Source of the DNA: a virus
Direction: 5' to 3' (one strand)
Virus record (IMG/VR): IMGVR_UViG_3300045988_167796
Span: 4,032-68,031 of that record
Length of the DNA stretch: 64,000 nucleotides
Shown: piece by piece, positions 3,861 to 43,669 of the stretch
Position numbering within the stretch: position 1 is the first letter of the stretch
How the letters are laid out: each line of letters starts with the position of its first letter
Position numbers and translations under genes: made by a program
Notes under the pieces: generated by a model
Told to the model about the DNA's origin: nothing
Databases searched by the model: none
The model's input: only the letters and a program-made list of their open reading frames with translations

Positions 3861-4271
3861 ATGGAAGTAAGTAAAGAGATTATTGAAGTACTTGATTATA
3901 TTGGTGACAAGTTTGGAATTGCTGTGAATTGGACGGATAAAAACGTCCTTCCATATGTGCAGCAGTTATGTGAGAAATTTATTAAATGGGATATTGCAAC
4001 ATCAGTTTACTGGATTGGATTCGCTATCATATTTGTTATCGCTGGTATTGTGTTAGTAAAATACGGAAAGAAATTTATAAATAAAGCGGAAGATATGGAT
4101 GATATGCATTTTGGTTTAGGAGTTACGTATATTGTTTTAGCAGTTTGTTTATTCGTAATATCTTTTATCATAATTCCATGTCAGATATATGATATTGTTA
4201 AGGATTGTTATATGCCAGAATTAAGATTATATGAATATGCAAAATCATTTATTTCAAATAATACGAGGTAA
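3861..4271 (+). CDS. membrane protein (2-3 predicted TM helices)
   Basis: Hydrophobic stretches WIGFAIIFVIAGIVLV and IVLAVCLFVISFIIIP. Confidence 0.45.
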   Translation: MEVSKEIIEVLDYIGDKFGIAVNWTDKNVLPYVQQLCEKFIKWDIATSVYWIGFAIIFVIAGIVLVKYGKKFINKAEDMDDMHFGLGVTYIVLAVCLFVISFIIIPCQIYDIVKDCYMPELRLYEYAKSFISNNTR

Positions 4272-9634: not shown

Positions 9635-10012
9635 ATGACAAGAAGAGAAGCATACGAAAAACATAAGGCGTTGTGGAATGAAATTGCAAAGATGATTGAT
9701 AAAGGGATTAAATATAATAATCCAGAGACATACAAATCTGAAGCGTTAGAAAGATTAGGGTACTACGATTATACTTTTAATAACTGTTATGCATGCGAAG
9801 TTACAAAATGTTGTAGCGATTGTTTAGTTGTTTGGAAATTTGCTACTTGCATGTATCAAGGATCAGAATATATGAATTTTATTTATGAAGTGGAACATAA
9901 TAATTATGATTCTGCAAAAGAATATGCAAGGAAAATCGCAAATCTTCCACTTAGAGAAGGATTTGATATAGACAAAGATATTTATGAAGATGATTATGAG
10001 GTGATTATATGA
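9635..10012 (+). CDS. Cys-rich protein, paralogue family member 3
   Basis: MTRREAYEKHKALWNEIAKMI...CYACEV..CCSDC..VW...IANLPLREG. ATGA overlap with the RT start. Confidence 0.5.
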   Translation: MTRREAYEKHKALWNEIAKMIDKGIKYNNPETYKSEALERLGYYDYTFNNCYACEVTKCCSDCLVVWKFATCMYQGSEYMNFIYEVEHNNYDSAKEYARKIANLPLREGFDIDKDIYEDDYEVII

Positions 10013-11274
10013 AAGATATTTTGCTGCAAAAATTTTTTGAATCAGAAAGATGGGAAAAGGCAATTGAAACTGGTGTCGGAAAAGGGATTGATAAAGGTGA
10101 GCTTCGGCAATTATGTTCTCCGGAAATAAGAGCTGCAATGTATAACTGTATCATTTCTGATAATTATGAAATCGCTCCGCCTCATCAGGCTAAAATTCCA
10201 AAAGACAATGGTGACTTCCGTATTGTATATGTAAATGAAAATGTAGATAGAGTGTTCTTATCTATTGTAAATGATATGTTGTTTGAAATGTTCCCGGAAA
10301 TGGTACATAAAAGATGCAAATCCTATCAGTCCGGTATTGGATGTGGGAAAATTGTACAGGAAGTATCAAGGACGATTTGCAATACAAATGGTGATGTGAT
10401 TGGATGGAAGTCAGATCTTAGCAAGTACTTTGATTCAGTTCCAATCCAGTTTATTGATAGAGTATTTGATACAATAGAAAGCAAAGTCGGCAAATCGAAA
10501 ATAATTGATGTAGTACGTAAATATTATCATACAGATTTATGTTTTGATGTAGATGGAAATTTAATTGAACATTATCAGTCATTAAAACAGGGATGTGCAG
10601 TTGCTAGTTTTCTGGCAGATGCTGTACTTTATGATATTGATGATATGCTTAGTAAATTAGATGGATATTATGTAAGATATTCTGATGACTGTCTATTCGT
10701 TGGTAACGATTATGAAGATGCTATGATAATTATGCAGTATATGCTTGCTGATATGGAGATGACTCTTAATCCAAAGAAAGTTGAGTATCTGCATGCTGAT
10801 AAATGGTTCAAATTTCTTGGATTTAACATTAAAGGATCTATGATATCACTTTCGAAACAACGCGTGAAATCTTTTCAAAAAGAAATCTGTAATAGAAGTA
10901 TAAATAAAAAGGATATTACACAACAAAAAGCGTTGAATAGTATTAATAGATATTTGTATATTGGAGATGGAAGATTTTCATGGGCAACATCAGTTCTTCC
11001 TATTATTAATGTACAGAAAGATATTGATACATTAAATGATTATGTAATGGATTGTATAAGAGCATGTAATACCGGAGGAAAAAGAATCGGAGGACTTGGA
11101 AGTGTAAATGATAGAAATGATTTTACGATTATAAGAGGAACTGGAAGAAATGTAAAAGCGAATAAAAAGAAAACAGAAAAGAAAATTGATGGGTATTATA
11201 GTATCCGATGTATGCAGAAAGTAATTCTTACAAACAGAGCTGCTTATGACACTATTGTGAGAAGCTTGGCTTAA
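10009..11274 (+). CDS. reverse transcriptase (retron / group II / Abi-like, not DGR-type)
   Basis: All RT motifs present: IPKDNGDFRIVYV (motifs 1-2), SDLSKYFDSVP (A), LKQGCAVASFLADAVL (B'), YVRYSDDCLFVG (C), LNPKKVEY (D), FLGFNI (E). Confidence 0.75.
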   Translation: MKDILLQKFFESERWEKAIETGVGKGIDKGELRQLCSPEIRAAMYNCIISDNYEIAPPHQAKIPKDNGDFRIVYVNENVDRVFLSIVNDMLFEMFPEMVHKRCKSYQSGIGCGKIVQEVSRTICNTNGDVIGWKSDLSKYFDSVPIQFIDRVFDTIESKVGKSKIIDVVRKYYHTDLCFDVDGNLIEHYQSLKQGCAVASFLADAVLYDIDDMLSKLDGYYVRYSDDCLFVGNDYEDAMIIMQYMLADMEMTLNPKKVEYLHADKWFKFLGFNIKGSMISLSKQRVKSFQKEICNRSINKKDITQQKALNSINRYLYIGDGRFSWATSVLPIINVQKDIDTLNDYVMDCIRACNTGGKRIGGLGSVNDRNDFTIIRGTGRNVKANKKKTEKKIDGYYSIRCMQKVILTNRAAYDTIVRSLA

Positions 11275-15706: not shown

Positions 15707-16009
15707 ATGCTATCACCAGAAGATATTAAAAGATTTGACAAGATGAAAGATGAGGTGCTACATGAAAAGTTAAAATTTCATGAAAATCTAGGATGGATGA
15801 TTATCGTTGGATTATTTTGTCTCGTTATAAAAGATGGATGGTTTGGTATCGTTTGTCTTATTATTTATGGGATTTATGGATTAAGCGAGGAAATCAAAGT
15901 AGAAGAATACTATAATACTGTAGTAAAAGCACGTAGGGAACAGTTTAAAAAAGATCATATTTTAAGAAATAAGGATGGTTCACCATATGACTGGAAGAGT
16001 AGAAAATGA
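15707..16009 (+). CDS. small membrane protein
   Basis: SD aagggagga. Hydrophobic core MIIVGLFCLVIKDGWFGIVCLIIYGIYG. Confidence 0.45.
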   Translation: MLSPEDIKRFDKMKDEVLHEKLKFHENLGWMIIVGLFCLVIKDGWFGIVCLIIYGIYGLSEEIKVEEYYNTVVKARREQFKKDHILRNKDGSPYDWKSRK

Positions 16010-16952
16010 AATTAAAATAAATAATAATATTCAAGTGCTATTAGAGGATCTTCCTGAATATGTTAGTGATTATTATTATAACATACAGGTATCTAATACG
16101 CCGAATACATGCAGACAATATATTAGAGATATTAAAAATTTCCTAATATATATAGACATGGATATTGCGTCAGTAAATGATGCTGTTTTAGGAAAATATT
16201 TACAGAGCATTAAATATGCTGGAGGGAAAAAACGATCAGAAGAATATGTAAAAAAAATATATTCATGTTTAAATCAATTTTTGCAATACTTAAATAATAA
16301 AAATATAATTGACGATAACCCAATGAAACTTATCAAACGTCCGAGTAAAAAAGACCATGTAGAAAGATATTATTTGGATATGAAAGATCTTTCAAAAATA
16401 TTAGAATCGGTTATTCATGATTATGGTTCTCAATGGCAGAGCAGAGATTATGCGATATTATTTATACTGATGGTTACCGGAATGAGAAGGACGGCATTAA
16501 GCGAAATAAACATTGAAGATATCGATTTTAAAGCAAAGGAGATTAAAGTTGTTGATAAAAGAGATAAACTTCAGATTTATGTTATAACTGATGAAATGAG
16601 GGATGTATTATTAGAGTGGATTGATGAAAGGGATAGAATCTTGAAAAAGATGAACAAAAATTCAGATGCTTTATTTATATCATCAAGGGGTGAAAGAATA
16701 ACTGATAAATTAGTATATCGTGTTACTCAAAAATACTCAGAAAAAGCATTAGGAAGAAAAGTTTCCCCGCATAAGTTAAGAGCTTCTTTTGCTGTATTAT
16801 ATTATGAAAAATCTGGTCATGATATTGAAGCAACAAGAGATGCGATGGGTCATAGTGATATAGCAATAACTGGTAGATATATTACAAAGAATAATAAAGC
16901 AAGATGCGATTCTGCTAATTTTATGTCTTCTGGTTTAACAAAAAAAAACTAA
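15975..16952 (+). CDS. tyrosine recombinase / integrase (XerC/D-like)
   Basis: C-terminal catalytic signature HSDIAITGRYI (H-x-x-R...Y) plus upstream RRTALSEI Arg box. Start may be ATG 15987. Confidence 0.65.
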   Translation: MVHHMTGRVENEIKINNNIQVLLEDLPEYVSDYYYNIQVSNTPNTCRQYIRDIKNFLIYIDMDIASVNDAVLGKYLQSIKYAGGKKRSEEYVKKIYSCLNQFLQYLNNKNIIDDNPMKLIKRPSKKDHVERYYLDMKDLSKILESVIHDYGSQWQSRDYAILFILMVTGMRRTALSEINIEDIDFKAKEIKVVDKRDKLQIYVITDEMRDVLLEWIDERDRILKKMNKNSDALFISSRGERITDKLVYRVTQKYSEKALGRKVSPHKLRASFAVLYYEKSGHDIEATRDAMGHSDIAITGRYITKNNKARCDSANFMSSGLTKKN

Positions 16953-17006: not shown

Positions 17007-18269
17007 TTGTTAAAAGAAAGATCAGAATTAGAACAATTGATTTCAGACAAAAATAGTCGTATACTTTTTGATACAGAAAAATGTCTTAAACTATGTGATT
17101 TGTGTTATGAAAACTTTAAAATTCCAAGAGGTGAAATATCTGATATTATTTCTTCCAGAAAAAGTATTGAAGAAGTAAGTGAATTTGTATTATTTGCTAT
17201 TTTAAATAGCTATGATATTTTAAGAAATTTAAAAAAACCTAAAGTTAATGAATACTTTACTCCTATAGAGATCGAGCACTTTAGCAAGTCAGTATACTGT
17301 ATAGATGATATTAGGTTCCCTTTAGTATTTGATATGTTACAGGTTGCAAATGACCAATGGATCGGCACTATATCTGTAAAAGATATTATTAAATTTAGAA
17401 GGGCACAATTTATTCATTATGATGTTGATACACAAAGGGCAATGCAGCGTATCGTGAGAGGAAATAAAGAGTATTATAAGATAAAAGTAAATAACAGTGC
17501 CGTTGAAAGTATATCTACATTAATGGAAAATAATCAATATATACCTAATACTCTTACTTTTAATATTCCTCCTGATGTTGAGTCTGATTTCTATTATGAC
17601 GAAGAAAAGAAACAATTGATCATCCGAAAATTAAAATATTTCAATATATCTGATGGATATCATAGGTATATAGCTATAGGAAAACTTAGCGAAAAAGATG
17701 AAGATTTTAATTTAACAATGGAATTAAGAATTACTAATTTTTATGATGATAAAGTGCAGAATTTTACGTTCCAGGAAGACCAAAAAACAAAAATGTCTAA
17801 AATTGATTCAGACACATATAACACAAATGACCCGGCGAATACTGTTTCAACAAGACTTAATGAAGATCCAAGATCAAATATAAAAGGATTGATTGGAAGA
17901 AATCAATCAATTATTCCTATGCAGGATCTTTCAAGATGTATTAAGTATTTCTATTTTAATTCAAATGCTTCTTATGTAAAAACACAAAAGAGTATTATAG
18001 AAGTAACAAAAGAATTGATGGAAGATTTTAATATTTTGACAGAAGAAGTACCTCAGTTCCTGGAAAAACGAATGGATTTTAATGTGTTAAGCTGCATATT
18101 GTATATATTCAAATTGTACCAAACCAAAGATAAATCTCATATGGTACAATCAGTACAATACCTTATTGAAAAAAGTAGTAGTATTGATCAAAGAAAATTT
18201 GCATCTAGAAAAATTAGAAAACCTTTAGTTAATGAATTTGATAAAATAATGGAAGGAGTTGAGTTTTGA
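17007..18269 (+). CDS. hypothetical protein with DGQHR-like motif (ISDGYHRYIAIGK), DndB-like?
   Basis: TTG start after SD gaaggaggtg. DGYHR resembles the DGQHR-domain signature. Confidence 0.35.
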   Translation: MLKERSELEQLISDKNSRILFDTEKCLKLCDLCYENFKIPRGEISDIISSRKSIEEVSEFVLFAILNSYDILRNLKKPKVNEYFTPIEIEHFSKSVYCIDDIRFPLVFDMLQVANDQWIGTISVKDIIKFRRAQFIHYDVDTQRAMQRIVRGNKEYYKIKVNNSAVESISTLMENNQYIPNTLTFNIPPDVESDFYYDEEKKQLIIRKLKYFNISDGYHRYIAIGKLSEKDEDFNLTMELRITNFYDDKVQNFTFQEDQKTKMSKIDSDTYNTNDPANTVSTRLNEDPRSNIKGLIGRNQSIIPMQDLSRCIKYFYFNSNASYVKTQKSIIEVTKELMEDFNILTEEVPQFLEKRMDFNVLSCILYIFKLYQTKDKSHMVQSVQYLIEKSSSIDQRKFASRKIRKPLVNEFDKIMEGVEF

Positions 18270-19183
18270 TGTATAATCCTGAAATAAAAAATCGTTATAT
18301 TAATCGCAAGGAAAGCGAAACAATTTTAAATAAACATTTATTAAAAGGTATATTTGAAAAAACAGAAAAATATGAAAACGAACTTAATAAAGACGTTTGT
18401 AATTTTTCTTATTATGATATTTCAGAATTTTATAAGATGATTGGCTCAACTTCTTTAGGATCGTTAAATTCAATGAATTCACAGTTGTCTCAATATACAT
18501 CCTGGTGTATTCATGAAGGATTCGTTGAAGACGGGCAAAACCATTTTTCTGAGTTTTCTTCTAGTATTTTAAAAAATTATTTAAACATTGCTAAAATTAA
18601 TAATACTATTATTACAAGGGAGGAAATAATTTCTTTATGTAATAAGTTATCAAATGCAAGGGACTGCTTTATTATTTTATCTTTGTTTGAATATGGAAAA
18701 TCAAAAAACTTTTCTGATATTTCGTATGCAAGATTTTGTGACATAGAAGGAAATATTTTAAAGTTAAAAAGCGGAAGGAGTGTCATCATATCAGAACAAT
18801 TAAAATCTATTGCAGAAGAGTCATATAATTCAACAAGCTATGTTTCAATAGATGGAAATAGAACATTTAATTTGATTGATGATGGAACTATTATAAAACA
18901 TAGGAATGAAATATCTGAGGCATCTGAATTTGCCGCAGGTAGGAAGATTTATAATTTGATAGTTAAAATTTTTAATATATATGGCTTAAATGATATGTCG
19001 GCAAATAATATTGTTATGTCTGGTATTCTTAATATGATACTAGAGAAGTCTCAGAAATACGGAATCAGTCCTATGCAATACTTAGATTCTGATTATATTT
19101 CAGAGATCGAGAATCAATATGGTGTTAATAGATATACTTTCAAATCAAACTTTGTTATGACATATACCGATTATTTAAAATAA
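18266..19183 (+). CDS. hypothetical protein
   Basis: 305-aa ORF with 4-nt overlap to the upstream gene. Confidence 0.4.
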   Translation: MMYNPEIKNRYINRKESETILNKHLLKGIFEKTEKYENELNKDVCNFSYYDISEFYKMIGSTSLGSLNSMNSQLSQYTSWCIHEGFVEDGQNHFSEFSSSILKNYLNIAKINNTIITREEIISLCNKLSNARDCFIILSLFEYGKSKNFSDISYARFCDIEGNILKLKSGRSVIISEQLKSIAEESYNSTSYVSIDGNRTFNLIDDGTIIKHRNEISEASEFAAGRKIYNLIVKIFNIYGLNDMSANNIVMSGILNMILEKSQKYGISPMQYLDSDYISEIENQYGVNRYTFKSNFVMTYTDYLK

Positions 19184-24011: not shown

Positions 24012-24539
24012 ATGAAATTTAAAGATATACCACAATTGACAAGAGAAGGTTCGTGGCAAGCAAACATGCCTTTGAAATATGTTTTTGATCGAATAAAAGA
24101 GTGGGAAGAAGACGATTACTATCAGTTGCAACTTAATCCTAAATTTCAACGTGGACATGTTTGGACAGAAGAACAGCAAATCGCATATGTGGAATTCTTA
24201 CTTCGAGGTGGAAAATCTGCTAAAGTGATTTATTTTAATAAGCCGAGCTGGCAAAGTAGTATGATTATTGATGGTTATGATGATTTTGTGTGCGTTGATG
24301 GACTTCAAAGACTCACGGCAGTCATGAGATTTTTGAATAATGAAATCAAAGTGTTTGATACTTATTATAAAGATTATGAAGACAAATTACCGATTGGAAT
24401 TGATTTGGTATTTAACGTAAACAATCTCAAAACAGAGAAAGAAGTATTACAGTGGTATGTAGACATGAATGCAGGTGGTACTCCACATACGAATGAAGAA
24501 ATTGAGCGAGTTAAGAATATGATTGCAGAATTGGAGTAA
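24012..24539 (+). CDS. stand-alone DUF262 (ParB-like nuclease domain) protein
   Basis: PKFQRGHVWTEEQ and VDGLQRLTAV (DGQQR signature) motifs. Confidence 0.55.
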   Translation: MKFKDIPQLTREGSWQANMPLKYVFDRIKEWEEDDYYQLQLNPKFQRGHVWTEEQQIAYVEFLLRGGKSAKVIYFNKPSWQSSMIIDGYDDFVCVDGLQRLTAVMRFLNNEIKVFDTYYKDYEDKLPIGIDLVFNVNNLKTEKEVLQWYVDMNAGGTPHTNEEIERVKNMIAELE

Positions 24540-30811: not shown

Positions 30812-33238
30812 GTGTCAGATCAGAGAGAAAGAGATTTAGTACTCAACCCTAATGAATACGCTTATGTTCTTGATAAAACAAAAGGACTTATTTCATGCGT
30901 TGTAGGCTCATACAAAATGAGCCTGTCAACTTCAGATGCTCTTGTTGTTTTTAATGAGAGAACAAAAAGATTTGAAGAAGCTAATTTCCAGGATGCCATC
31001 ACAACATTTGTATCTGCTCCGGAAAACTGGTATGTAACATTAAAAAATCCTGCAAAGGATAATGCACATCCTACAACCGGAACTTCAAACCAGCTGCCAG
31101 ATTTGCAGATTGGTAAAAAAGTAAATATTAAAGGTAATGTTTCATTTGCTTTGTATCCTGGACAGATGGCAAAAGTTATTCAGGGGCATAGATTGCATTC
31201 AAATCAGTATCTTTTGGCAAGAGTATATGATGCAGATGTTCTCCCTAAATCAGAGGATGGTAATGAATATTCTGTTGGTCAGCTTCTTGTGATTAAAGGA
31301 ACAGAAGTACCGTTTTATATTCCACCAACTGGTATTGAAGTATTGCCGGTAGAAAGAAAAGAAAATATGTATGTAAGAGATGCAGTAACTCTAGAAAGAC
31401 TTGAATATTGCATTCTTAAAGATGAACAAGGAAATAAGAAATATATTCATGGTCCAGCAGTTGTATTTCCAGAACCTGATGAAGTATTCGTAGAAAGTTC
31501 TAAAGGAAATTATATTTTTAAAGCAATTGAACTTTCTGAAATCAGCGGTATTTATGTAAAGGTAATTGCTGATTATAAAGATGATGGCAAGGAATACAAA
31601 GCAGGTGATGAACTATTTATTACAGGCAAGGATCAGATGATTTATTATCCACGCCCAGAACATGCAATTATTGATTATGAAGGAAAAGTAATTCATCATG
31701 CAATTGCAATCCCGGTAGGAGAAGGAAGATATGTGCTTGATCGAAAAACTGGTAATATTAAAACTGTTAAAGGTGCCAAGATGTATCTTCCAGATCCTAG
31801 AAATGAGGTAATTGTAAGAAGAAAACTTACAAAGAAACAGTGTGAATTATGGTATCCAGGGAATAATGAAGTTTTAAAATACAATACAGGGATTGATAAT
31901 ACACAGTTATACTATTGTGATTCTTCTGTATCAAGAAGTGTCCCAAGTATGTCTCTTACATCACTTTCATGCAATGTATCAATGGATGCTTTGGAAAATG
32001 GATTTATTGGTCAGGAAAATGCTATTGTAAATGAAGGTTTTTCAAGAGGAAATACATATAGTAAACCAAGAACAATTACGATTGATAATAAGTATGACGG
32101 AGTTGTCAGCATAGATATTTGGACGGGATACGCAGTAAATGTAGTATCTAAAAATGGAAATCGTAAAGTAGTTCTTGGACCTCAGACATATCTTATGGAT
32201 TATGATGAGACACTTGAAGTACTTGAGCTGTCTACAGGAAAACCAAAAACAACAGATCATTTATTTAAGACTGTATTTTTAAGAGTTGAAAACAATAAAA
32301 TTAGTGACATTATTAAAGTACAGACAAAAGATTTTGTTGAAGTTCAGGTTAAAGTATCTTACTGTGTAGATTTTCTTCCGGAATACCAGGATAAATGGTT
32401 TAATGTTGAAAACTATGTAAAATACATGACAGACCGGCAGAGATCTTTAATGAAACGAGAAGCTAAGAAGTATACAATTGAAGAATTTTATGAGAACGCA
32501 TCCGAAATTATTAGAAATGTCGCGCTTAATATTGATTCTGAAAATACAAGAGAAGAATCAGAAAGCAGCCATGGTACAGGAAGATTATTTAAAGAAAACG
32601 GAATGTTTGTTCGTGATGTAGAAGTTTTAAGTGTACATGTTGAAGAAGATGTAGAAGATATGATTAACGATCATTATCAGACAATGATGGAGAAAACACT
32701 TGAACTTTCTAATGTGAATAAAGAAATTGAAGTAATAAAACAGCTTACAGAAGCAGAAAAAACAAAAGCTGATTTAAAAAATCAGAGTGACATGTATAAG
32801 CTGGAATTAAAGAATCGATACGAAAAAGAAAGTATTGAAAAACGTGAAGCTATCAGAAGAATGGAAGAGCAGGCTGAAATTGATAAGAAAACTGCAGAAA
32901 AGAATTTACAGGAACTGAAAGATACGATTCAGAAAGCGGAATTAGCAAGAGAAAAAGAGAAAAATGATCTTGAACTTGCAAGGAAGAAAGAGATTGATAA
33001 TTTATCGATTACTAAACAGAAAGCATATACAGATGCTATTAAGAAAGTAATTGAATCCATTAGTCCTGATCTTATTGCTTCTATGACTTCTCAGTCAAAT
33101 GCAGAACTTCTTAAATCTGTATCTGAATCTATTAGCCCATATGCAATGGCTAGTGGTGAATCTGTTGCAGAATTTACAAATAAATTGCTGAGAGGTACAT
33201 CTCTTGAGGGTTTATTAAGCAAAGTTGTAAGTGAGTAA
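30812..33238 (+). CDS. large hypothetical protein (808 aa) with C-terminal coiled coil
   Basis: Motif plus SD upstream. C-terminal 200 aa are heptad-rich (KADLKNQSDMYKLELKNRYEKE...). Confidence 0.5.
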   Translation: MSDQRERDLVLNPNEYAYVLDKTKGLISCVVGSYKMSLSTSDALVVFNERTKRFEEANFQDAITTFVSAPENWYVTLKNPAKDNAHPTTGTSNQLPDLQIGKKVNIKGNVSFALYPGQMAKVIQGHRLHSNQYLLARVYDADVLPKSEDGNEYSVGQLLVIKGTEVPFYIPPTGIEVLPVERKENMYVRDAVTLERLEYCILKDEQGNKKYIHGPAVVFPEPDEVFVESSKGNYIFKAIELSEISGIYVKVIADYKDDGKEYKAGDELFITGKDQMIYYPRPEHAIIDYEGKVIHHAIAIPVGEGRYVLDRKTGNIKTVKGAKMYLPDPRNEVIVRRKLTKKQCELWYPGNNEVLKYNTGIDNTQLYYCDSSVSRSVPSMSLTSLSCNVSMDALENGFIGQENAIVNEGFSRGNTYSKPRTITIDNKYDGVVSIDIWTGYAVNVVSKNGNRKVVLGPQTYLMDYDETLEVLELSTGKPKTTDHLFKTVFLRVENNKISDIIKVQTKDFVEVQVKVSYCVDFLPEYQDKWFNVENYVKYMTDRQRSLMKREAKKYTIEEFYENASEIIRNVALNIDSENTREESESSHGTGRLFKENGMFVRDVEVLSVHVEEDVEDMINDHYQTMMEKTLELSNVNKEIEVIKQLTEAEKTKADLKNQSDMYKLELKNRYEKESIEKREAIRRMEEQAEIDKKTAEKNLQELKDTIQKAELAREKEKNDLELARKKEIDNLSITKQKAYTDAIKKVIESISPDLIASMTSQSNAELLKSVSESISPYAMASGESVAEFTNKLLRGTSLEGLLSKVVSE

Positions 33239-36048: not shown

Positions 36049-36213
36049 ATGATGAACCCAGCATTATTAGTACTTATTGCAATTGGAGTGATCCTAATAT
36101 ATCTATTAGCATCATTTTTATATAGGCCAATTGGAAATTTCTTTTACAGAATTTTAAAAGACGCAGAAGAAGCAATTAAAGATGAAGAAGAGGAGAATAA
36201 CGAAGATGAGTAA
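36049..36213 (+). CDS. small membrane protein
   Basis: MMNPALLVLIAIGVILIYLL TM helix. Confidence 0.4.
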   Translation: MMNPALLVLIAIGVILIYLLASFLYRPIGNFFYRILKDAEEAIKDEEEENNEDE

Positions 36214-37165
36214 AAAAGGACATGGATTTTTAGGGGCAGTTGTGTTAGGAGTAGCAGTTATTGTTGGTGCATTTGTAGTGGCAAAATGTACTACGAGAGT
36301 ACCCGCTGGTTATATTGCAGTTCAGTATAACGTAAGTGGTGGTATTGAAGGAGATGTATTAGAACAGGGATGGCATTTTGTATCGCCTACAGTAAAAACA
36401 ACATTATATTCAATCGGTCTTGAGCAGTCTTATTTGACCGCAGAAGACAAGGGAGACTCTGAAAAAGATGAGAGTTTTAAAACTCCTACAGCTGATGGCA
36501 AACAGTTAACTGTCGATCTTGAATTCTCTTATAGATTTGATCAGGATGTAATCGCACAGACATTTACAAGATTTAAAGGTAAATCCGGAGAGTCTGTAAA
36601 AGATACATTTATTAAACCTAAGATGAAAGCATGGACTCAGGAAGTGACCGCTAAATATCCTGTAACAGATGTGTTTGGTGATAAGCGTCAGGAATTAAAT
36701 GAAGCTCTTGATGAGTACCTGAAAAAGAAATTTGAGCCATATGGAATTATTATTGATACTGTAAACTTTACAAATATTAGTACAGATGATGAAACATCTG
36801 CAGCAATTCAGAAGAAAGTAAACGCACAGCAAGAACAGGAGCTTGCAAACATTGAAGCTAAAACAGCAAAGATTAATGCTGAAAAAGAGAAAGAAGTAGC
36901 TTTGATTGCAGCTGAACAGGAAAAAGAAACAGCTCAGATCCAGGCAGAACAGGCTAAGATTAAAGCAGAAGGTCAGGCAGAAGCTACAAGAATTAAAGCA
37001 GATGCGGAAGCAGAAGCCGTTGCTAAAGTTGCTGGTGCTATGACTCAGGAATATATTGATTACACTGAGGCTCAGGCTTGGAATGGCCAGCTCCCAACCG
37101 TACAGGGATCTGCCGGAACTATTATTGATATGGGATCTGCAACACAGGAAGCTCAGGGAGAGTAA
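36206..37165 (+). CDS. SPFH / band-7 (prohibitin/HflK-like) domain protein
   Basis: N-terminal TM helix, SPFH core VPAGYIAVQYN...TADGKQLTVDLEFSYRF, and C-terminal Ala/Glu/Lys-rich coiled coil typical of HflK/C. Confidence 0.6.
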   Translation: MSKKGHGFLGAVVLGVAVIVGAFVVAKCTTRVPAGYIAVQYNVSGGIEGDVLEQGWHFVSPTVKTTLYSIGLEQSYLTAEDKGDSEKDESFKTPTADGKQLTVDLEFSYRFDQDVIAQTFTRFKGKSGESVKDTFIKPKMKAWTQEVTAKYPVTDVFGDKRQELNEALDEYLKKKFEPYGIIIDTVNFTNISTDDETSAAIQKKVNAQQEQELANIEAKTAKINAEKEKEVALIAAEQEKETAQIQAEQAKIKAEGQAEATRIKADAEAEAVAKVAGAMTQEYIDYTEAQAWNGQLPTVQGSAGTIIDMGSATQEAQGE

Positions 37166-38089: not shown

Positions 38090-38854
38090 ATGCCGCCAAT
38101 TGAAAATTACGAAGTGTATACTGCCGGAATGGAAAAATCAATGGAAGATAAATTATTCTGGCTTGATAAAATTCCAAAAGAAGAGTATTCCACTGTAATT
38201 GATTATGGATGTGCAGACGGGATATTCTTAAAAAAAGTAAGAGAGTATAATCATGATTGTTTTTTATGTGGTATAGATATTGATGACTGGATGTTGCAGG
38301 AAGCGAGAAAGAAAGTAGGATCTAACGCTGTATTTATGCATGAGGGTATGCTATCACAACCATCACATCTTACCGGAGATGTATTGAATTTGTCTTCTGT
38401 GCTGCATGAGATTTATTCGTATAAAACAAATAGAGAAATCTGTAAATTTTGGGATTATGTTCGTGGACATAAATATGTATGTATTAGAGATATGTGTTAT
38501 GACAGTAAAAGATTATATGATATGTATGTGTCTGAATTGCAGTATAAAGACGATGCTGAAAAGCAGAGGAGAACAGAGTTTGAAAGTATTTGGGGAAAGA
38601 TAGATGATCCGTTAGCGTTTGTACATTATATGCTTAAGTATAGATATGTTGAAAACTGGGATAGAGAAGTAAAGGAAAACTATTTAAGTATAGACGTAGA
38701 TTTATTACACTATTGCGCTGATCAATTTCATTATGACATAGTATATGAAGATCACTACACATTACCATTTCTAAAAGAACAAGTAGAAAAAGATTGGGGA
38801 TATGAACTAACAGTTCCTACACACATTAAAATGATTTGGAAAAGGAAAGATTGA
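38090..38854 (+). CDS. class I SAM-dependent methyltransferase
   Basis: Motif I VIDYGCADG and motif II-like CGIDID. Confidence 0.5.
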   Translation: MPPIENYEVYTAGMEKSMEDKLFWLDKIPKEEYSTVIDYGCADGIFLKKVREYNHDCFLCGIDIDDWMLQEARKKVGSNAVFMHEGMLSQPSHLTGDVLNLSSVLHEIYSYKTNREICKFWDYVRGHKYVCIRDMCYDSKRLYDMYVSELQYKDDAEKQRRTEFESIWGKIDDPLAFVHYMLKYRYVENWDREVKENYLSIDVDLLHYCADQFHYDIVYEDHYTLPFLKEQVEKDWGYELTVPTHIKMIWKRKD

Positions 38855-38857
38855 TAT

Positions 38858-39415
38858 ATGAATTATTTTATTTCTGATTTACATTTAGGACATAAAAATG
38901 CTTTATCTTTTGATAATCGTCCATTTAAAGATATTGATGAGAATAATTCTGCAATTATTGCAAGTTGGAATTCAGTTGTTGGAATAGATGATGACGTATA
39001 TATTTTAGGTGATATTAGTTGGTATAACTCTACTAAAACAATAGAAATTATGAAGTCTCTTAACGGAAGGAAACATCTTATTAAAGGGAACCATGACAGT
39101 AAATTACTTAAGAATAGAGAACTGCAGAAAGAATTTGTAGAAATAACCGATTATAAAGAACTATGTATTGATAAAGATAAATCTATAGTACTTTGTCACT
39201 ATCCGATACCGTGTTTTAAAAATCATTATTATGGATGGTATCATTTCTATGGACATGTTCATAGTAGCTTTGAGTGGAATATGATGGAACGTATTAAGTA
39301 CGAAATGAAAGAATTATATGATAAACCATGTGAAATGTACAATGTAGGCTGCATGATGCCTTACATGGGTTATAAACCAAGAACATTAGAAGAAATTATT
39401 GGAGGAAATAAATGA
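38858..39415 (+). CDS. calcineurin-like metallophosphoesterase
   Basis: DLHLGH, YILGD, KGNHD and LCHYP metal-binding motifs. Confidence 0.65.
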   Translation: MNYFISDLHLGHKNALSFDNRPFKDIDENNSAIIASWNSVVGIDDDVYILGDISWYNSTKTIEIMKSLNGRKHLIKGNHDSKLLKNRELQKEFVEITDYKELCIDKDKSIVLCHYPIPCFKNHYYGWYHFYGHVHSSFEWNMMERIKYEMKELYDKPCEMYNVGCMMPYMGYKPRTLEEIIGGNK

Positions 39416-40087: not shown

Positions 40088-40330
40088 GTGAAATTAAAAA
40101 ATATTACGAATATTGAAGGATTATTTGATGTTATTGATAGATGTGAAGGAAAAGTAGAACTTGTTGGAGACGATCTGCGTCTTAATTTAAAAAGTAAGTT
40201 GTCTCAATATTTTTCTTTGGCAAAATTATTTTCTGATGGTGAAATTCCCGAAATGGAGATTATTACATATAATCAAGAAGATACTAATAAATTAATAAGA
40301 TTTATGATGTCTGGCAATGCTAATGAATAA
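40088..40330 (+). CDS. hypothetical small protein (GTG start)
   Basis: SD ggaggag, then GTG at 40088. Confidence 0.35.
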   Translation: MKLKNITNIEGLFDVIDRCEGKVELVGDDLRLNLKSKLSQYFSLAKLFSDGEIPEMEIITYNQEDTNKLIRFMMSGNANE

Positions 40331-40339
40331 TATTAAAAA
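40326..40339 (+). promoter_or_regulatory. AATAATATTAAAAA motif
   Basis: Immediately 5' of the tRNA-cluster promoter. A second partial copy lies at 40420-40432. Confidence 0.4.
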
Positions 40340-40345
40340 AAGGTA

Positions 40346-40379
40346 TTGACAAATAGAAAGATGTATGGTACTATATAAT
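40346..40379 (+). promoter_or_regulatory. sigma-70-type promoter (TTGACA-N17-TACTATATAAT) driving the tRNA cluster, preceded by AATAATATTAAAAA
   Basis: TTGACA at 40346-40351. Extended -10 region at 40369-40379. Confidence 0.5.
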
Positions 40380-40670
40380 AGAAGAAAGCGAGATGCTTCT
40401 TTAAAATAATATATAACAGGTAATATTAAAAATACAATTTAGCTCATTTGTACATTCGGGTGGAACCGAATACGGAGTGATTTCCGGTAGAGCGAAGAAA
40501 TAAATCCTGCTAGAGCATTTAAGTAATGTAGATATAAGCGAAAGACTTACATCCATTGATCGGCTGCCTCTGCAAGCTGAAGGCCGACATAAAAGATGAT
40601 AATTGCAGATATGCTTATATCAGTCATAGGCATAAATCGAGCACATGAAAAAGTGTTCTGGCAGAAACGG

Positions 40671-40762
40671 AGGGCATTCGCCAAGCGGTAAGGCACATGA
40701 CTTTGACTCATGCATAATTCATTAGAAATGGTGATTCCTGGGTTCGAATCCCAGATGCCCTG
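40671..40762 (+). tRNA. atypical tRNA-like gene, anticodon UUG (Gln-like) with ~25-nt variable region
   Basis: Hand fold: 7-bp acceptor agggcat/atgccct, 3-bp D stem, anticodon stem catga/tcatg with loop cuUUGac, T arm ctggg-ttcgaat-cccag. The variable region is unusually long. Confidence 0.45.
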
Positions 40763-40856
40763 TTCAGAAGTATAAATTTCTGAAAGTATGTAAACGGTTT
40801 CCAATATGTTTTACTGTCAGCGTTTTTGGAGTAGTAAGCTTGAATAAACTCCATAT

Positions 40857-40940
40857 GCGGGTATGGTGGAATAGGCAGACACAGCGGACTTAAAATCCGC
40901 TGGTAGAAATACCGTGTGAGTTCAAGTCTCACTATCCGCA
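40857..40940 (+). tRNA. tRNA-Leu(UAA), type II
   Basis: Acceptor gcgggta/tatccgc (one G-U), 3-bp D stem, anticodon stem gcgga/tccgc with loop cuUAAaa, variable-arm hairpin ggta-gaaa-tacc, T arm gtgag-ttcaagt-ctcac. Confidence 0.75.
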
Positions 40941-41320
40941 TTAGGAACTAGAATTACTCGAAGGCCAAGAGTTAAGTTAGTTCTGAGGTTAACCTACATA
41001 TTTGAATAAATTGTATCGAAAATATAGCTTCAAGAGTAACATATAGCAGAAATTGCAGCGATATAAATAGATCAAAGTATTCATATAGACAACTAAGAAG
41101 ATTCGAATGTGAGTTGTAGGAACTCCGGTTGATGGTGACGGAGCGGAACCATCTGATCAATTTATATAGATGAATCGTCCTGTAGGAAATATCAGCAATG
41201 AGGGTGGGATGTAGGGAAAGTTGAAAGCCGATCACTTTCGTGTAGTTGCCAGGGCAAATGAAAATTAATGGGAACTATGATGTATTCGTATTTAGTTGCG
41301 GTAAAAGTACATCATAGCAT

Positions 41321-41406
41321 ACGCCCTTAGCTCAGTAGGTTAGAGCAGCGGCCTTATAAGCCGTGTTAAATGCGAAAGCGCCTGGGTTCGAGTCCCAGAG
41401 GGCGTA
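41321..41406 (+). tRNA. atypical tRNA-like gene, anticodon UAU (Ile-like) with 17-nt variable arm
   Basis: Acceptor acgccct/agggcgt, U8A9, D arm gctc-agtaggtta-gagc, anticodon stem gcggc/gccgt with loop cuUAUaa, variable gttaaatgcgaaagcgc, T arm ctggg-ttcgagt-cccag. Confidence 0.5.
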
Positions 41407-41658
41407 TTAGATGGCAACAGGTCTATGTGAAAATGTGTGATTATAACGCATTGAACGGAAGTCTGAAGTATGGTAGACAGCATATAATCTTGAATTGACT
41501 TTTGTACGTTTCAATAGCAAACTCAGTCAAAGTAAAAATGTAACAGACGACTTTGTGGCAATTGTTATCATAATCCTGCGTAGCTGCAGTATCGTAGGTC
41601 ATGCATGTAAAAAATATAAGGTTGCCGATGACTTCATATATCAGTAGTGGAATCGGAA

Positions 41659-41724
41659 GTGGCATTAGCTCAAATGGGAGAGCACTGTTCACAGAGGTTA
41701 ATGGTTCGAATCCATTATGCCACA
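41659..41724 (+). pseudogene. truncated tRNA-like element lacking a proper anticodon arm (66 nt)
   Basis: Perfect acceptor gtggcat/atgccac, D arm gctc-aaatggga-gagc and T arm aatgg-ttcgaat-ccatt. Only 16 nt lie between the D and T arms. Confidence 0.4.
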
Positions 41725-42000
41725 TTGGAGTACCGCAAGGCAGCAAAAACTTGTCCTCGGATAAAAGGCTCATCATAGAATAGGCTATGATACACAGAAA
41801 AAGAGTATTCCTAAAATGTAATAAGAGATATTGATATGGGTATACACATAGAAATACAAAGTTCTTCGCCTTATGAGCCAAGGTTTGCTTAGTAGCAAAT
41901 ACAACACAGCCTACGCGCAAAAATGGGATATAAAATGGCCGTCCCCGGAAGAAAGAAACTTATTACAAAATAATATTTATAACAAGTAATAGTAAAAATT

Positions 42001-42243
42001 ATGAAAATAAAAAATAAATTAGTAATATTGATTTTAATTGCTTCAATTGTACTTAGTATGTATACTGGTGGGTGGTTGCTGTTTTTAAAACCAATATTTA
42101 CAGTATATAATCTATTTTATATTGGGGAATTAACAGGAGGTATAATATTCAAAACAATAGTAGAATGTATTTTTGCTCCTATTGTTTCATGGATCATTTT
42201 TGGCATTGGATATATTATATCAATGGTTATTATTAATATATAA
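42001..42243 (+). CDS. small membrane protein
   Basis: Two TM helices. Confidence 0.4.
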   Translation: MKIKNKLVILILIASIVLSMYTGGWLLFLKPIFTVYNLFYIGELTGGIIFKTIVECIFAPIVSWIIFGIGYIISMVIINI

Positions 42244-42256
42244 GGAGAAAACGTAT

Positions 42257-42619
42257 ATGTTAGCAAATATGAAATTGAGTGATTTAAAAACTTCTGACGT
42301 AGTATTGTCCACGAAAGGAAGTTATGGAGTAGTTTTGAGAAATACACCACAGGGAGATTTAATCAAGTGGTTTTTAAATAAAAATGGAGACATTATTCAT
42401 AAGTACCGTTCTTTGAATATGCTGAACGAAGATATGAGTTTTAAATATGATGGCAAAGATAATCGTATTATTAAGGTATATAGAGTAACAGATAAACATG
42501 ATATGACAACGATGAATTCTATACAGGAAAAATATGTTATCTGGGAAGAAAAAGTTGTTGAAGTTACAATGAAAGATCTTGAAGAGAAGTACGGTTGTAA
42601 AGTAAAGATTAAAAAATAA
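42257..42619 (+). CDS. hypothetical protein
   Basis: SD taaggagaaaac, then ATG at 42257. Confidence 0.45.
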   Translation: MLANMKLSDLKTSDVVLSTKGSYGVVLRNTPQGDLIKWFLNKNGDIIHKYRSLNMLNEDMSFKYDGKDNRIIKVYRVTDKHDMTTMNSIQEKYVIWEEKVVEVTMKDLEEKYGCKVKIKK

Positions 42620-42628
42620 TCTATAATA

Positions 42629-42642
42629 AACAATATTAAAAA
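42629..42642 (+). promoter_or_regulatory. AACAATATTAAAAA motif variant
   Basis: Upstream of the RNA ligase gene. Confidence 0.35.
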
Positions 42643-42748
42643 TATGAAATATATCACATGAAAGGAAAGAATATATAAATAAATATATTATAGATCATAG
42701 ATGTCCAGGGGACAGTTTCTATTTATCTCACCTTGAAAGAGAGGTGAG

Positions 42749-43669
42749 ATGATGGAACAGAAAAAATTTATGGATATACAAAGGTTGAAAGAAGGATATG
42801 CAGACGGATTTCAACCAGGAGATATGATTGTAATACAAGAAAAGTATGATGGATCTAATGCTTCTATACGATTTGATAAAGAATCTGGAGAGCTTGTGTG
42901 TTTTTCAAGAAGGAAAACATTAGACTTTCAAAATACTTTGAATGGTTTTTACAACTATGTAAAAACACTAAATACTGATGAGTATAAAGATACGCCGGAT
43001 TATGTAATATTTGGTGAATGGTCAGGAGCTAGAAATGCCATTATATATGATAAAAAACATACGAATAAATGGTATGTATATGACATTTACGATGTAAAAG
43101 AAGAGAAGTATCTACCTCAATCATCTGTAATGAAATTTGCGTTAGATCACGGTTTAACTTATATGCATACATTCTATATTGGACCGTTTATTTCATGGGA
43201 TCATATTATGAGTTTTATGGATAGGCCAGCATACGGAGAAGTAGCAGAAGGTATTGTAATAAAAAATCAGACCAGGTTAAACGATCCAAATAGTAGGTTA
43301 CCATTTGTTGTAAAGATAGTAGGAGAACAGTTCCATGAAGTGGCAAAAATAAATCATGCAGCAAAGATTGCAGATCCTCAAAAACTAAAAGAAAGAGAAG
43401 AGGCTGCTAAATCAACAGAGTCTATTGTAACAGAGCGTAGAGTTACAAAAGAGTTATATAAGATGCGTGACGAAGGTATCATACCTATGGATTGGGATGA
43501 AACTACAATGTCAATAATTGCAAAAACACTTCCTAGCAGAATTTATGCAGATTGTGTTAAAGAAGAAAAGGAAATAGTAGAAGCAATTGGAAAATATTTT
43601 GGAAAATTTTGTTCCTCGATAGCAATGAAGCATGCAAGAAAAGTTGTATTAGGGACTCCAGAGGATTGA
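42749..43669 (+). CDS. RNA ligase-like nucleotidyltransferase (KxDG superfamily, PF09414-like)
   Basis: Motif I EKYDGSN (lysine adenylation site), motif III-like FGEWSG, motif V VVKIVGEQF. Preceded by the AATAATATTAAAAA-like motif. Confidence 0.55.
   Translation: MMEQKKFMDIQRLKEGYADGFQPGDMIVIQEKYDGSNASIRFDKESGELVCFSRRKTLDFQNTLNGFYNYVKTLNTDEYKDTPDYVIFGEWSGARNAIIYDKKHTNKWYVYDIYDVKEEKYLPQSSVMKFALDHGLTYMHTFYIGPFISWDHIMSFMDRPAYGEVAEGIVIKNQTRLNDPNSRLPFVVKIVGEQFHEVAKINHAAKIADPQKLKEREEAAKSTESIVTERRVTKELYKMRDEGIIPMDWDETTMSIIAKTLPSRIYADCVKEEKEIVEAIGKYFGKFCSSIAMKHARKVVLGTPED

Follow-up and report, generated by a model that had tools for sequence, protein, structure and literature searches.

In bacteriophage T4, the transfer RNA (tRNA) genes are co-transcribed with the stable RNAs C and D and their products are freed by tRNA-processing enzymes of the host; the same phage possesses a tRNA repair pathway formed by Pnk and Rnl1. 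In mascRNA-type elements (MALAT1, MEN-beta), a tRNA shape with a reduced anticodon arm ends a long non-coding RNA, and RNase P and RNase Z define the ends. GOLLD and ROOL are large ornate RNAs of unknown function, encoded by phages and prophages next to tRNA islands (PMC5737381, PMC12286853), and abundant long non-coding RNAs also lie beside the tRNA genes of Staphylococcus phage K, a Kayvirus (PMC9241854). Five further reports describe phage tRNAs that neutralise PARIS, retron and anticodon-nuclease defences, together with nucleases whose cuts take away the tail of a tRNA or its anticodon arm (PMC10264068, PMC11555353, PMC11464382, PMC12445682, PMC12851939). Here we analyse a stretch of 64,000 nucleotides (nt) of viral DNA (IMG/VR record IMGVR_UViG_3300045988_167796, positions 4,032 to 68,031; hereafter the window), which harbors an RNA island with three tRNA genes, two of them bearing extra arms, and a tRNA-like element lacking a proper anticodon arm, followed downstream by an RNA ligase gene. 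Phage tRNA islands, tRNA-like elements and neighbouring large RNAs are already known kinds; what is new comprises an RNA derived from tRNA-Phe that has lost its anticodon and is conserved, behind a dedicated hairpin, in contigs of related gut phages, together with class I tRNAs carrying class II-style arms, a Leu-bodied tRNA(UUG) cassette and an unclassified structured leader RNA.

Relatives were collected by three routes: with the ligase as anchor (39 IMG/VR loci and closer ENA/Logan contigs), with an 80-amino acid (aa) open reading frame (ORF) upstream of the island as anchor (further loci), and with the DNA pattern of a conserved hairpin (48 more IMG/VR stretches). Seven loci from several pig-gut and other samples make up the clade of the window (the window itself, L041, L042/43/45, L095, L096, L098 and L105), which is narrow and mosaic, and a larger human-gut phage set (L001 and L047-L094 types) has only part of the island architecture. 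The loci L099-L104 and L107-L112, found via the widespread upstream ORF, were rejected as extra lineages, their contexts being different and the island absent. The relatives' contigs with the long-variable-arm tRNA-Gln and tRNA-Ile come from other samples, and chance or assembly error is excluded as the origin of the odd tRNAs.

The 66-nt element that the original prediction had described as retaining acceptor, D and T arms while lacking an anticodon arm is indeed such a molecule. The acceptor stem (GUGGCAU/AUGCCAC, 7 base pairs, bp), A73 and both the D and T arms are intact, and the anticodon arm consists of the mini-hairpin CUG-UUCA-CAG (41685-41694), with a 3-bp stem and a 4-nt loop; in the alignment to RF00005, 4 nt replace eleven anticodon-arm positions of the model. 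It lacks the 5-bp stem and 7-nt loop with anticodon expected of a decoder, and ARAGORN makes no call. Orthologues in L041, L042/43/45 and L095/96 have mini-loops of 4, 5 and 7 nt and a compensatory change of the mini-arm stem from CUG/CAG to CUA/UAG. The same slot holds an intact tRNA-Phe(GAA) in L052, L057 and L084; most other phages have D arm, T arm and acceptor either unchanged or covarying, next to a deformed anticodon arm of which at least seven versions occur (CACU-ACAAA-AGUG, the CUG-UUCA-CAG of the window, CUA-UGCGU-UAG, CUA-UGCGUUG-UAG, loops of 6, 8 and 9 nt, and others). The element descends from a tRNA-Phe(GAA) gene. In 16 distinct last-slot sequences, pairing of the acceptor and T stems stands at 98%, and both partners have changed in 8 of 13 pairs (33 cells), far in excess of shuffled and slid controls, while the D and T loops are nearly invariant and the anticodon arm alone varies among phages whose ligases are 69-100% identical. 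With compensatory changes preserving the stems and variation confined to the anticodon arm, the pattern is not that of pseudogene decay: the tRNA shape is maintained by selection and decoding has been given up. In all arrays the element is the last RNA before the next ORF.

Two further pairings touch this element. In the L001-type last-slot elements (e.g. L001 5346-5420) and in L046 4736-4812, the nucleotide at -1 is paired to the discriminator, and this -1:73 pair covaries (G:C in 7, A:U in 6, G.U in 3), giving an 8-bp acceptor helix like that of tRNA-His; the L001-type elements with the eighth pair still have a 5-bp T stem, and the element of the window clade has lost one pair (7 bp, with A73 unpaired). 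Positions 41644-41657 can pair with 41705-41718, that is, the T arm and 3' acceptor strand, at 13 of 14 positions (three G.U), which would compete with the cloverleaf. Within the window clade the segment does not vary, L001-type arrays lack it, and this pairing, proposed by RNAalifold, shows no covariation; it was not adopted and is left as unexplained.

The hairpin upstream of the element displays the palindromic hexamer CUGCAG in its loop and is followed by a second palindrome, AUGCAU, after the stem. It is kept far outside the window clade: 48 IMG/VR stretches match the pattern, every related array carries CAUAAU-CCUG...CUGCAG...CAGG-UCAUGCAUG, and in every case a tRNA or tRNA-like unit lies 4-55 nt downstream. 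The stem covaries (CCUGCG/CGUAGG, CCUGUG/CACAGG, CCUGUUGUG/CACGACAGG, CCUAAUGU/ACAUUAGG), with pairing in 96% of cells and a change of both partners in three pairs.

Genes for tRNAs were called with ARAGORN, Rfam RF00005 (gathering score 29 bits) and single-sequence folding. Within 40.3-42.0 kb ARAGORN finds three tRNAs, among them the single canonical type II tRNA-Leu(UAA) first proposed, on which the three methods agree; it has the variable arm GGUA-GAAA-UACC, discriminator A73 and 92-100% identity in relatives. The two others were likewise anticipated as UUG and UAU tRNAs with long variable regions and non-type-II anticodons, and ARAGORN retains their long forms. RF00005 places the extra bases as variable-region insertions, of 23 nt in tRNA-Gln (variable region ~27 nt) and 14 nt in tRNA-Ile (variable region 17 nt), so the genes do not refold as ordinary type I tRNAs; cloverleaves and extra hairpins are reproduced by folding. 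The tRNA-Gln hairpin (40719-40734, UCAUUA-GAAA-UGGUGA) has 6 bp and a GAAA cap, and that of tRNA-Ile (41372-41381, GAAA/AAAG) is short, with a 3-bp stem. The same long-arm tRNA-Gln occurs in L041, L095, L096, L098 and L105, and in these five relatives its pairing is kept through a U-to-C change that turns U.G into C-G. Both genes thus have a base-paired variable arm of more than 10 nt, as in type II tRNAs, yet their anticodons are UUG and UAU and their bodies are Gln-like (A1:U72, G73) and Ile-like (A73), outside the Leu, Ser, Tyr and Sec identities of bacterial type II tRNAs. Like tRNA-Leu, they have a 5-bp anticodon stem and a 7-nt loop. All four tRNA-shaped units lack an encoded CCA, are followed by UU in the trailer and share a common T-arm/acceptor context. 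Rfam searches of 40300-42050, at the gathering threshold and at E <= 5, gave tRNA matches and noise only; no transfer-messenger RNA was detected there by either ARAGORN or Rfam, and no family other than tRNA at E <= 0.1, the bacterial Y RNA (YrlA) tRNA mimic included.

The phage uses UUA for 42% of Leu, AUA for 26% of Ile and CAA for 43% of Gln codons, and anticodons that would read these three codons fit codon supplementation. Engineered tRNAs tagged with a small hairpin are reported to remain translationally active (PMC7590224). Given that the variable-loop site tolerates extra arms, the long-arm Gln and Ile tRNAs most likely still decode.

The tRNA slots behave as exchangeable cassettes. 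Sequence identity in the tRNA-Gln flanks of the window clade is 88-94% and extends to the very edges of the gene, and in L042/L043 an unrelated 72-nt tRNA-Gln (61% identical) sits between these conserved flanks; swapped tRNA-Gln and tRNA-Ile genes are only 61-72% identical to relatives. In the L001 clade, identical flanks enclose either a standard 73-nt tRNA-Gln (the near-identical phages L008, L010, L011, L014 and L021) or an 87-nt type II tRNA(UUG), which has G73, an A1.C72 mismatch and a Leu-like body that shares an identical T arm with the adjacent tRNA-Leu(CAA). Clean replacement of cassettes between conserved flanks is therefore seen in two clades, and a long arm together with UUG arose twice, once by insertion of a hairpin into a Gln body and once by re-assignment of a Leu-like one. 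The tRNA-Ile(UAU) slot contains three bodies within conserved flanks: a long-arm form confined to the window and L105, a 76-nt form in L041, L095 and L096, and a 73-nt form in L042; the D and T arms of the window gene resemble the tRNA(CAU) in the same slot of L001-type arrays. The arrays of related phages also contain RAGATH-27, about 350 nt upstream of tRNA-Leu(UAG) in L052-type loci and between two tRNA-Gln genes in L027; the window is without it.

The four tRNA-shaped units stand in a 1.67-kb gap between the stop of the 80-aa ORF (40330) and the next ORF (42001), which contains no credible coding frame. Protein-coding spacers were discarded: the candidates amounted to short ORFs overlapping the tRNAs and, on the minus strand, a TTG ORF of 159 aa, none of which the gene caller called on the contig. 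A replication origin or iteron array was also set aside, no repeat families being present besides the tRNA T arms. The GC content is 36-46% at 40400-41900, compared with 25-33% in the directly adjoining DNA on both sides. The promoter proposed for the island was recovered as a site matching 10 of 12 positions plus the TG, and its -35 box and TGGTA..ATA -10 region are kept in L041, L042, L095, L096, L098 and L105; from its position the island transcript would start near 40381. An imperfect 20-nt direct repeat (80% identical) brackets the whole island, at 40326-40345 (AATAATATTAAAAAAAGGTA) and 41969-41988 (AATAATATTTATAACAAGTA), and could represent the limits of an inserted module or a coincidence of AT-rich sequence.

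The ~230-nt leader preceding tRNA-Gln is a folded RNA supported by covariation, is 88-94% identical to those of L041, L042 and L095, and matches no Rfam family. Its 5' domain, with the predicted hairpins AUUCGG-GUGGAA-CCGAAU and CGGAG-UGAU-UUCCG, is nearly invariant in seven sequences (a single substitution, in L105), so covariation speaks neither for nor against the fold. The main domain is closed by helix P1 (40507-20 with 40651-64, 13-14 bp) and contains helix P2 (40531-40 with 40612-21, 10 bp). Its helices have 98.5% of cells paired in the seven sequences, and six pairs (four in P1, two in P2) are changed on both sides, compared with 1.0 +/- 0.9 in shuffled alignments and 0-2 with slid partners; the fold z-score is -2.47. 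A local AAGCGAAAGACUU hairpin was replaced by the long-range P2 because five of the seven sequences have an A.C mismatch there. Exact-pattern searches with a leader 19-mer in IMG/VR, and with a leader 23-mer and a block C 22-mer in JGI metagenomes, gave no match, so the covariation rests on the seven loci; GenBank phages contained no DNA relative of the region, the tRNA-Leu alone being matched. The leader covariance model R1, run on 51 sources, recovered the window clade only, and its weak matches (E = 1-9) in L056, L070, L072 and L090 were treated as chance. In L098 (705-1623) the leader and the long-arm tRNA-Gln are followed by unrelated sequence straight after the tRNA, which points to a separable module.

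As to the spacers in general, the original prediction of structured-looking non-coding DNA is confirmed: they are conserved and partly folded, with covariation in the leader. The fold energies of the others are unremarkable. Compared with L041, L042 and L095, the non-leader spacers are 76-94% identical and the flanking ORFs and ligase 74-86%, so that the spacers are conserved as much as, or more than, the flanking genes. The Gln-Leu spacer (76-84% identical to relatives) has one predicted hairpin directly after tRNA-Gln and another that adjoins the 5' end of tRNA-Leu and is invariant in five lineages. The Leu-Ile spacer is 83-94% identical to relatives, against 74-86% for flanking genes, with a fold z-score of -1.79; a length-variable segment lies amid its invariant blocks, with a 44-nt insertion in the window, and, as the blocks are invariant, covariation is unavailable and the structure is only predicted. 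In the trailer, 41725-41755 is common to L042 and 41818-41965 to L041, L095 and L096. The coordinates of all features are given in Table 1.

Table 1. Features of the RNA island, its flanking genes and related arrays (coordinates refer to the window unless a locus is named).
Feature	Coordinates	Strand	Description or support
RNA island	40346-42000	+	~1.65 kb, gene-free, behind one promoter-like site
Sigma-70-type promoter-like site	40346..40374	+	TTGACA, 17 nt, TACTAT, upstream TG (extended -10)
Leader 5' domain	40442..40493	+	Predicted three-way junction: GCUC/GAGC stem around two hairpins
Leader main domain	40507..40664	+	Closed by P1; P2 and inner hairpins inside
tRNA-Gln(UUG), 92 nt	40671..40762	+	ARAGORN; RF00005 55.7 bits; folding
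Gln-Leu spacer	40763..40855	+	Hairpin 40763-40783; hairpin UGGAGU...ACUCCA 40827-40853; both predicted
tRNA-Leu(UAA), canonical type II	40856..40941	+	ARAGORN; RF00005 57.4 bits; folding
Leu-Ile spacer RNA	40942..41319	+	Invariant blocks 40942-41001, 41095-41172, 41222-41254
tRNA-Ile(UAU), 88 nt	41320..41407	+	ARAGORN; RF00005 64.6 bits; folding
Spacer from tRNA-Ile to tRNA-like element	41408..41658	+	41495-41658 nearly invariant
CUGCAG hairpin	41569..41607	+	CAUAAU-CCUGCG-UAG-CUGCAG-UAU-CGUAGG-UCAUGCAUG
Anticodon-less tRNA-like RNA, 66 nt	41659..41724	+	RF00005 52.7 bits; folds as expected
3' trailer or 5' untranslated region of next gene	41725..42000	+	Fold z-score -1.17
Two small ORFs, 80 aa (hydrophobic) and 120 aa	42001..42619	+	Between island and ligase
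ATP-dependent RNA ligase superfamily protein, 306 aa	42749..43669	+	PF09414 5e-24, phrog_548 5e-54
Generic S-adenosylmethionine (SAM) methyltransferase	38090-38854	+	No Hen1 entry among PDB matches with E <= 1
Metallophosphoesterase	38858-39415	+	Pfam 2e-6, phrog_547 1e-45; generic, aq_1665-like
87-nt type II tRNA(UUG)	L001 3101-3187		Also in L003-L005, L007, L009, L012, L023
RAGATH-27 (RF03100) sites	L027 2140-2223; L052 2323-2410; L057 5547-5634; L064 3659-3746; L070 8983-9070; L082 6762-6849		88-97 bits

We favour, at a confidence evenly poised between right and wrong, an explanation in which the island would act as one processed precursor. The conserved promoter would give a single RNA of ~1.6 kb, which host RNase P and RNase Z would cut at each tRNA-shaped unit, releasing three kinds of product. 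The first would be three tRNAs which, once charged, would decode the A-ending codons CAA, UUA and AUA that the phage uses heavily, the extra hairpins belonging to one lineage each and sitting in slots that behave as cassettes. The second would be several spacer RNAs, including the folded leader, and the third the 66-nt RNA derived from the tRNA-Phe(GAA) gene by collapse of its anticodon arm. Most economically, the latter would serve as a processing or punctuation handle between the non-coding part and the downstream mRNA, fixing the ends of both. In support, there is one conserved promoter and no intrinsic terminator was found before 42702, and the intact acceptor, T and D arms in a CCA-less UU context, as in true tRNAs, are an indirect sign of processing. 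The heavy use of the three codons, the leader fold, the conservation of the spacers, the exchange of cassettes, the covariation of the last slot and of the CUGCAG hairpin, the constant last position of the element, the published tolerance of variable-arm hairpins and the large RNAs known beside phage tRNA islands speak for it as well.

Several observations weigh against this explanation. A handle needs only the acceptor/T minihelix and the elbow, and it leaves both the upstream hairpin and the many anticodon-arm deformations, kept rather than lost by drift, without an explanation; nor does the precursor model give a cause for the double origin of the long arm in the tRNA(UUG) slot. All six double changes of the leader come from a single lineage, L042, and among the spacer RNAs covariation supports only the leader and the CUGCAG hairpin, the others being mostly invariant and thus unable to show it. 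The spacer at 41408-41658 folds no better than shuffled sequence (z = +0.98), so that its conservation is at the sequence level and is not explained by stability; a constraint other than stable structure acts on it. Finally, and of relevance to the compensation of host codon usage, the leader 23-mer and the hairpin pattern had no match in GTDB genomes.

The principal rival to the processed precursor is an arms race, which we regard as unlikely but deserving serious attention. Here, tRNA-cutting or tRNA-trimming immune nucleases of the host or of prophages would drive the turnover of tRNA bodies; the hairpins or the type II body in the UUG slot would confer resistance or distinguish the phage molecules from host tRNAs, the anticodon-less RNA would be a decoy for effectors that act on the elbow or acceptor end, and the ligase, with the phosphoesterase or a Thg1-like protein, would mend cut tRNAs. 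Its appeal lies in a turnover of tRNA bodies that outpaces that of the spacers, with anticodons unchanged, and in the two independent routes by which the long arm reached the UUG slot. Near-identical phages that differ only in the tRNA(UUG) cassette, the many anticodon-arm deformations in a last slot whose remaining molecule is under selection, a ligase near the island in most relatives and a Thg1-like gene in L043 agree with it, and the published phage tRNAs that counter tRNA-targeting defences set a precedent. A decoy role for the anticodon-less element, also raised originally, may apply. Against the arms race, no tRNA-Gln-targeting nuclease is known for the host, many relatives retain a standard tRNA-Gln, and the exchange of cassettes could equally be explained by matching the synthetases of different hosts.

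The enzymes close to the island bear on the same question. The ligase proposed from its KxDG motif was recovered: PF09414 spans residues 27-189, motif I reads KYDG, and K32, D34 and G35 are invariant in 20 homologues. The C-terminal domain is helical. None of the NCBIfam cut-offs was reached (TIGR02307 22.8/197, TIGR01209 28/137, TIGR02306 16/151), the protein falls below the Rnl2, Rnl3-like and DRB0094 family cut-offs, and it has no match to PF09511, the T4 Rnl1 family. A fold search listed Rnl3, Rnl5 and T4 Rnl1 in this order, all weakly, with T4 Rnl1 at rank 20 or lower (E ~0.01) and the Pnkp1/Rnl/Hen1 complex at E = 3.5 only; Rnl3-type ligases are the best solved relatives by both sequence and fold. 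Because the structure model has a mean predicted local distance difference test (pLDDT) of 69 and template-modelling scores (TM-scores) of 0.25-0.31 to Rnl3 and Rnl5, with none above 0.31, no subfamily was assigned from it. Large phages of Bacillus, Staphylococcus, Listeria and Lactobacillus commonly encode homologues (35-40% identity), and the one of phage Tsamsa is not beside tRNAs. In at least 14 related loci with hairpin and tRNA or tRNA-like unit, the retrieved DNA, reaching at least 2.5 kb downstream, contains no ligase gene; the ligase is a frequent neighbour of the island and is not required for the module.

A calcineurin-like phosphoesterase upstream, directly preceded by the methyltransferase, was also anticipated and is a metallophosphoesterase by Pfam and phrog_547. 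The further proposal that these enzymes form a T4-like repair kit finds no support, as neither a kinase nor Hen1 nor Rnl1 was detected: Pfam scans of 50 window ORFs detected no polynucleotide kinase, RtcB or CCA-adding enzyme, the methyltransferase and phosphoesterase show no Hen1 or Pnkp signatures and are generic, and the ligase-less arrays argue in the same direction. A Pnkp/Hen1 set was rejected likewise, and the incomplete repair set and the arrays lacking a ligase are further points against the arms race. In L043 (193-1086), a Thg1-like protein (PF04446, tRNA 5'-end guanylyltransferase/repair) is encoded two genes upstream of the metallophosphoesterase, and this gene may keep the link to tRNA maintenance alive.

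A broader combination of these ideas is also doubtful. In it, the non-decoding tRNA-shaped RNA, the long-arm tRNA(UUG) cassettes and the island RNAs would jointly be tools against host systems that recognise the tRNA shape: the anticodon-less RNA a translation-neutral decoy for acceptor-end or elbow nucleases or toxins, the extra arm a tag making the phage tRNA-Gln resistant to attack or distinguishable from the targeted host tRNA, and the leader and spacer RNAs a new class of phage tRNA-island RNA.

We consider it rather improbable that the island encodes one or a few ornate RNAs of the GOLLD/ROOL kind, with the tRNAs in linkers, self-association through CUGCAG/AUGCAU and a structural role for the tRNA-like element. 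The niche is that of GOLLD and ROOL, which lie in phage tRNA islands and in the case of GOLLD sometimes hold tRNAs in a linker (PMC12286853, PMC5737381); the raised GC content at 40400-41900, the invariant blocks that exceed the surrounding genes in conservation and the 6-nt palindrome displayed in a conserved hairpin loop are consistent with such a scaffold. A consensus fold of the whole island predicts invariant long-range pairings (e.g. 41407-17/41562-73 and 40993-41001/41113-20), but these helices show no covariation, and for two of the four spacers folding is at most barely better than that of shuffled sequences. Moreover, no match to GOLLD, ROOL or another Rfam family appears even at E <= 5, the modules are separable (L098 has only the leader and tRNA-Gln), the leader model finds only a narrow clade, and the palindromes could equally be protein-binding sites at the DNA level.

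Neutral decay, in which the insertions are tolerated without having a function, the 66-nt element is a tRNA-Phe pseudogene in the course of being lost and the similarity of the spacers comes solely from recent ancestry or recombination, is improbable. The insertions are indeed lineage-specific, with the long tRNA-Ile in the window and L105 only and the long tRNA-Gln in one clade, the clade is narrow and mosaic, and several spacers have neither thermodynamic nor covariation support. A pseudogene, however, should change everywhere, yet the stems of the last-slot element remain 98% paired through 33 double-changed cells; compensatory changes are present in the leader and the hairpin, the pairing of the tRNA-Gln arm survives the change from U.G to C-G, and conservation of the spacers exceeds that of the protein-coding DNA beside them in the same contigs. 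Very improbable, lastly, is the notion that the long-arm tRNA(UUG) is charged with Ser (or Leu) and inserts it at CAA, reprogramming or sabotaging translation in infection, for although a long variable arm and G73 are the main marks of seryl-tRNA synthetase, both long-arm tRNA(UUG) forms have G73 and a variable-region stem-loop, the L001-type gene has a tRNA-Leu-like body with the T arm of its neighbour, and natural allo-tRNAs with non-serine anticodons are reported to insert Ser in E. coli (PMC5389517), CAA makes up 43% of the phage's own Gln codons, so that missense decoding would harm its own proteins, and the window tRNA has a typical tRNA-Gln D arm, a weak 1:72 pair, G2:C71, G3:C70 and G73, a hairpin flanked by 5-6 unpaired bases, unlike tRNA-Ser, and acceptor and T stems of 7 and 5 bp instead of the 8/4 or 9/3 of allo-tRNAs, while tRNA-Ile(UAU) carries A73.

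The window belongs to a 171.7-kb contig from a gut metagenome (ENA ERZ27229639 k119_175764), corresponding to a ~172-kb phage that is AT-rich (32% GC) and whose host is probably a member of the Firmicutes. Its genes lie almost all on one strand and are of replication and nucleotide metabolism types, with window proteins including Pol III alpha, a RecD2-like helicase, an NAD-dependent DNA ligase, NrdD and ThyX. The two small ORFs between the island and the ligase have no family match, and in the examined relatives with a linked ligase the 120-aa one is syntenic. Just upstream of the island, the 80-aa ORF at 40088-40330 has more than 4,900 homologues in the protein collection (E <= 0.001), which adjoin integrase/recombinase genes at apparent prophage ends in L107 and L109-L112; one NCBI record labels a homologue 'polyA polymerase', which is implausible for 80 aa. 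Elsewhere, the window encodes a reverse transcriptase (10009-11274, PF00078 6e-21), an 808-aa protein with major-vault-protein shoulder and repeat domains (30812-33238, PF11978 4e-22, PF17795) and, 3 kb downstream of the latter gene, an SPFH/Band 7 protein (36182-37165), unusual for a phage. A possible defence/anti-defence neighbourhood (15975-16952, 17007-18269, 18266-19183, 24012-24539 and 2752-3849) includes two tyrosine-recombinase-type genes (Phage_integrase; MrpR N-terminal domain), a DndB-like gene, a GmrSD N-terminal domain and an nSTAND3/AAA ATPase.

The presence of tRNAs in phages and the clustering of large structured RNAs around them both call for an explanation, and the island supplies natural experiments on the two questions: near-identical phages have a standard, hairpin-tagged or type II UUG cassette as their sole difference, and a tRNA-Phe gene has repeatedly lost its anticodon arm with the remainder still under selection. 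If the element were a decoy or a processing handle, it would be a case of non-decoding tRNA mimicry from a bacterial virus; if the long-arm tRNAs decode normally, they would document in nature the tolerance of class I tRNAs to a class II-style arm, which would be useful for tRNA engineering.

Compared with the described systems, the island shares with GOLLD and ROOL the location beside phage tRNA genes and the combination of several hundred nt of non-coding RNA with tRNAs, probably co-transcribed and, in those families, sometimes placed in a linker. It differs in lacking sequence or structure similarity (no cmscan match at E <= 5), in being split by four tRNA-shaped units into pieces of ~90-380 nt, and in being known from seven loci with covariation in the leader only. 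Homo-oligomerisation as in those RNAs is hinted at by no more than the palindromic loop and the flank motifs, which might mediate it. With Staphylococcus phage K it has in common a large Firmicutes phage genome in which this ligase family is represented; a search revealed no relationship in sequence, and expression was shown there, while the island is known from its sequence. As in T4, an RNA ligase is encoded in the same genome as tRNA genes, but this ligase is not of the Rnl1 type, Pnk was not found in the window and there is no sequence similarity.

Allo-tRNAs (Mukai et al., 2017) likewise combine a long variable arm with anticodons other than those of Leu, Ser or Tyr in bacteria and phages (PMC5389517); they have 8/4 or 9/3 stems and a tRNA-Ser/Sec-like body, whereas the window genes have 7/5 stems and Gln and Ile bodies with an inserted hairpin. 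The tRNAs of T5 that act against PARIS, retron Eco7 and PrrC-type nucleases resemble the island genes in that the phage copies depart from those of the host with the anticodon kept (PMC10264068, PMC11464382, PMC11555353). No cognate defence system is known for the island tRNAs, and the cases described alter the anticodon loop or stem, unlike the added variable arm, swapped body and lost anticodon arm seen here. The anticodon-less element comes closest to mascRNA and to tRNA punctuation in its position and in the selection acting on it, with acceptor, T and D arms kept and the anticodon arm free to vary; the known cases are eukaryotic or mitochondrial, and by this analogy the island would provide a counterpart drawn from a tRNA-Phe gene and accompanied by a conserved upstream hairpin of its own.

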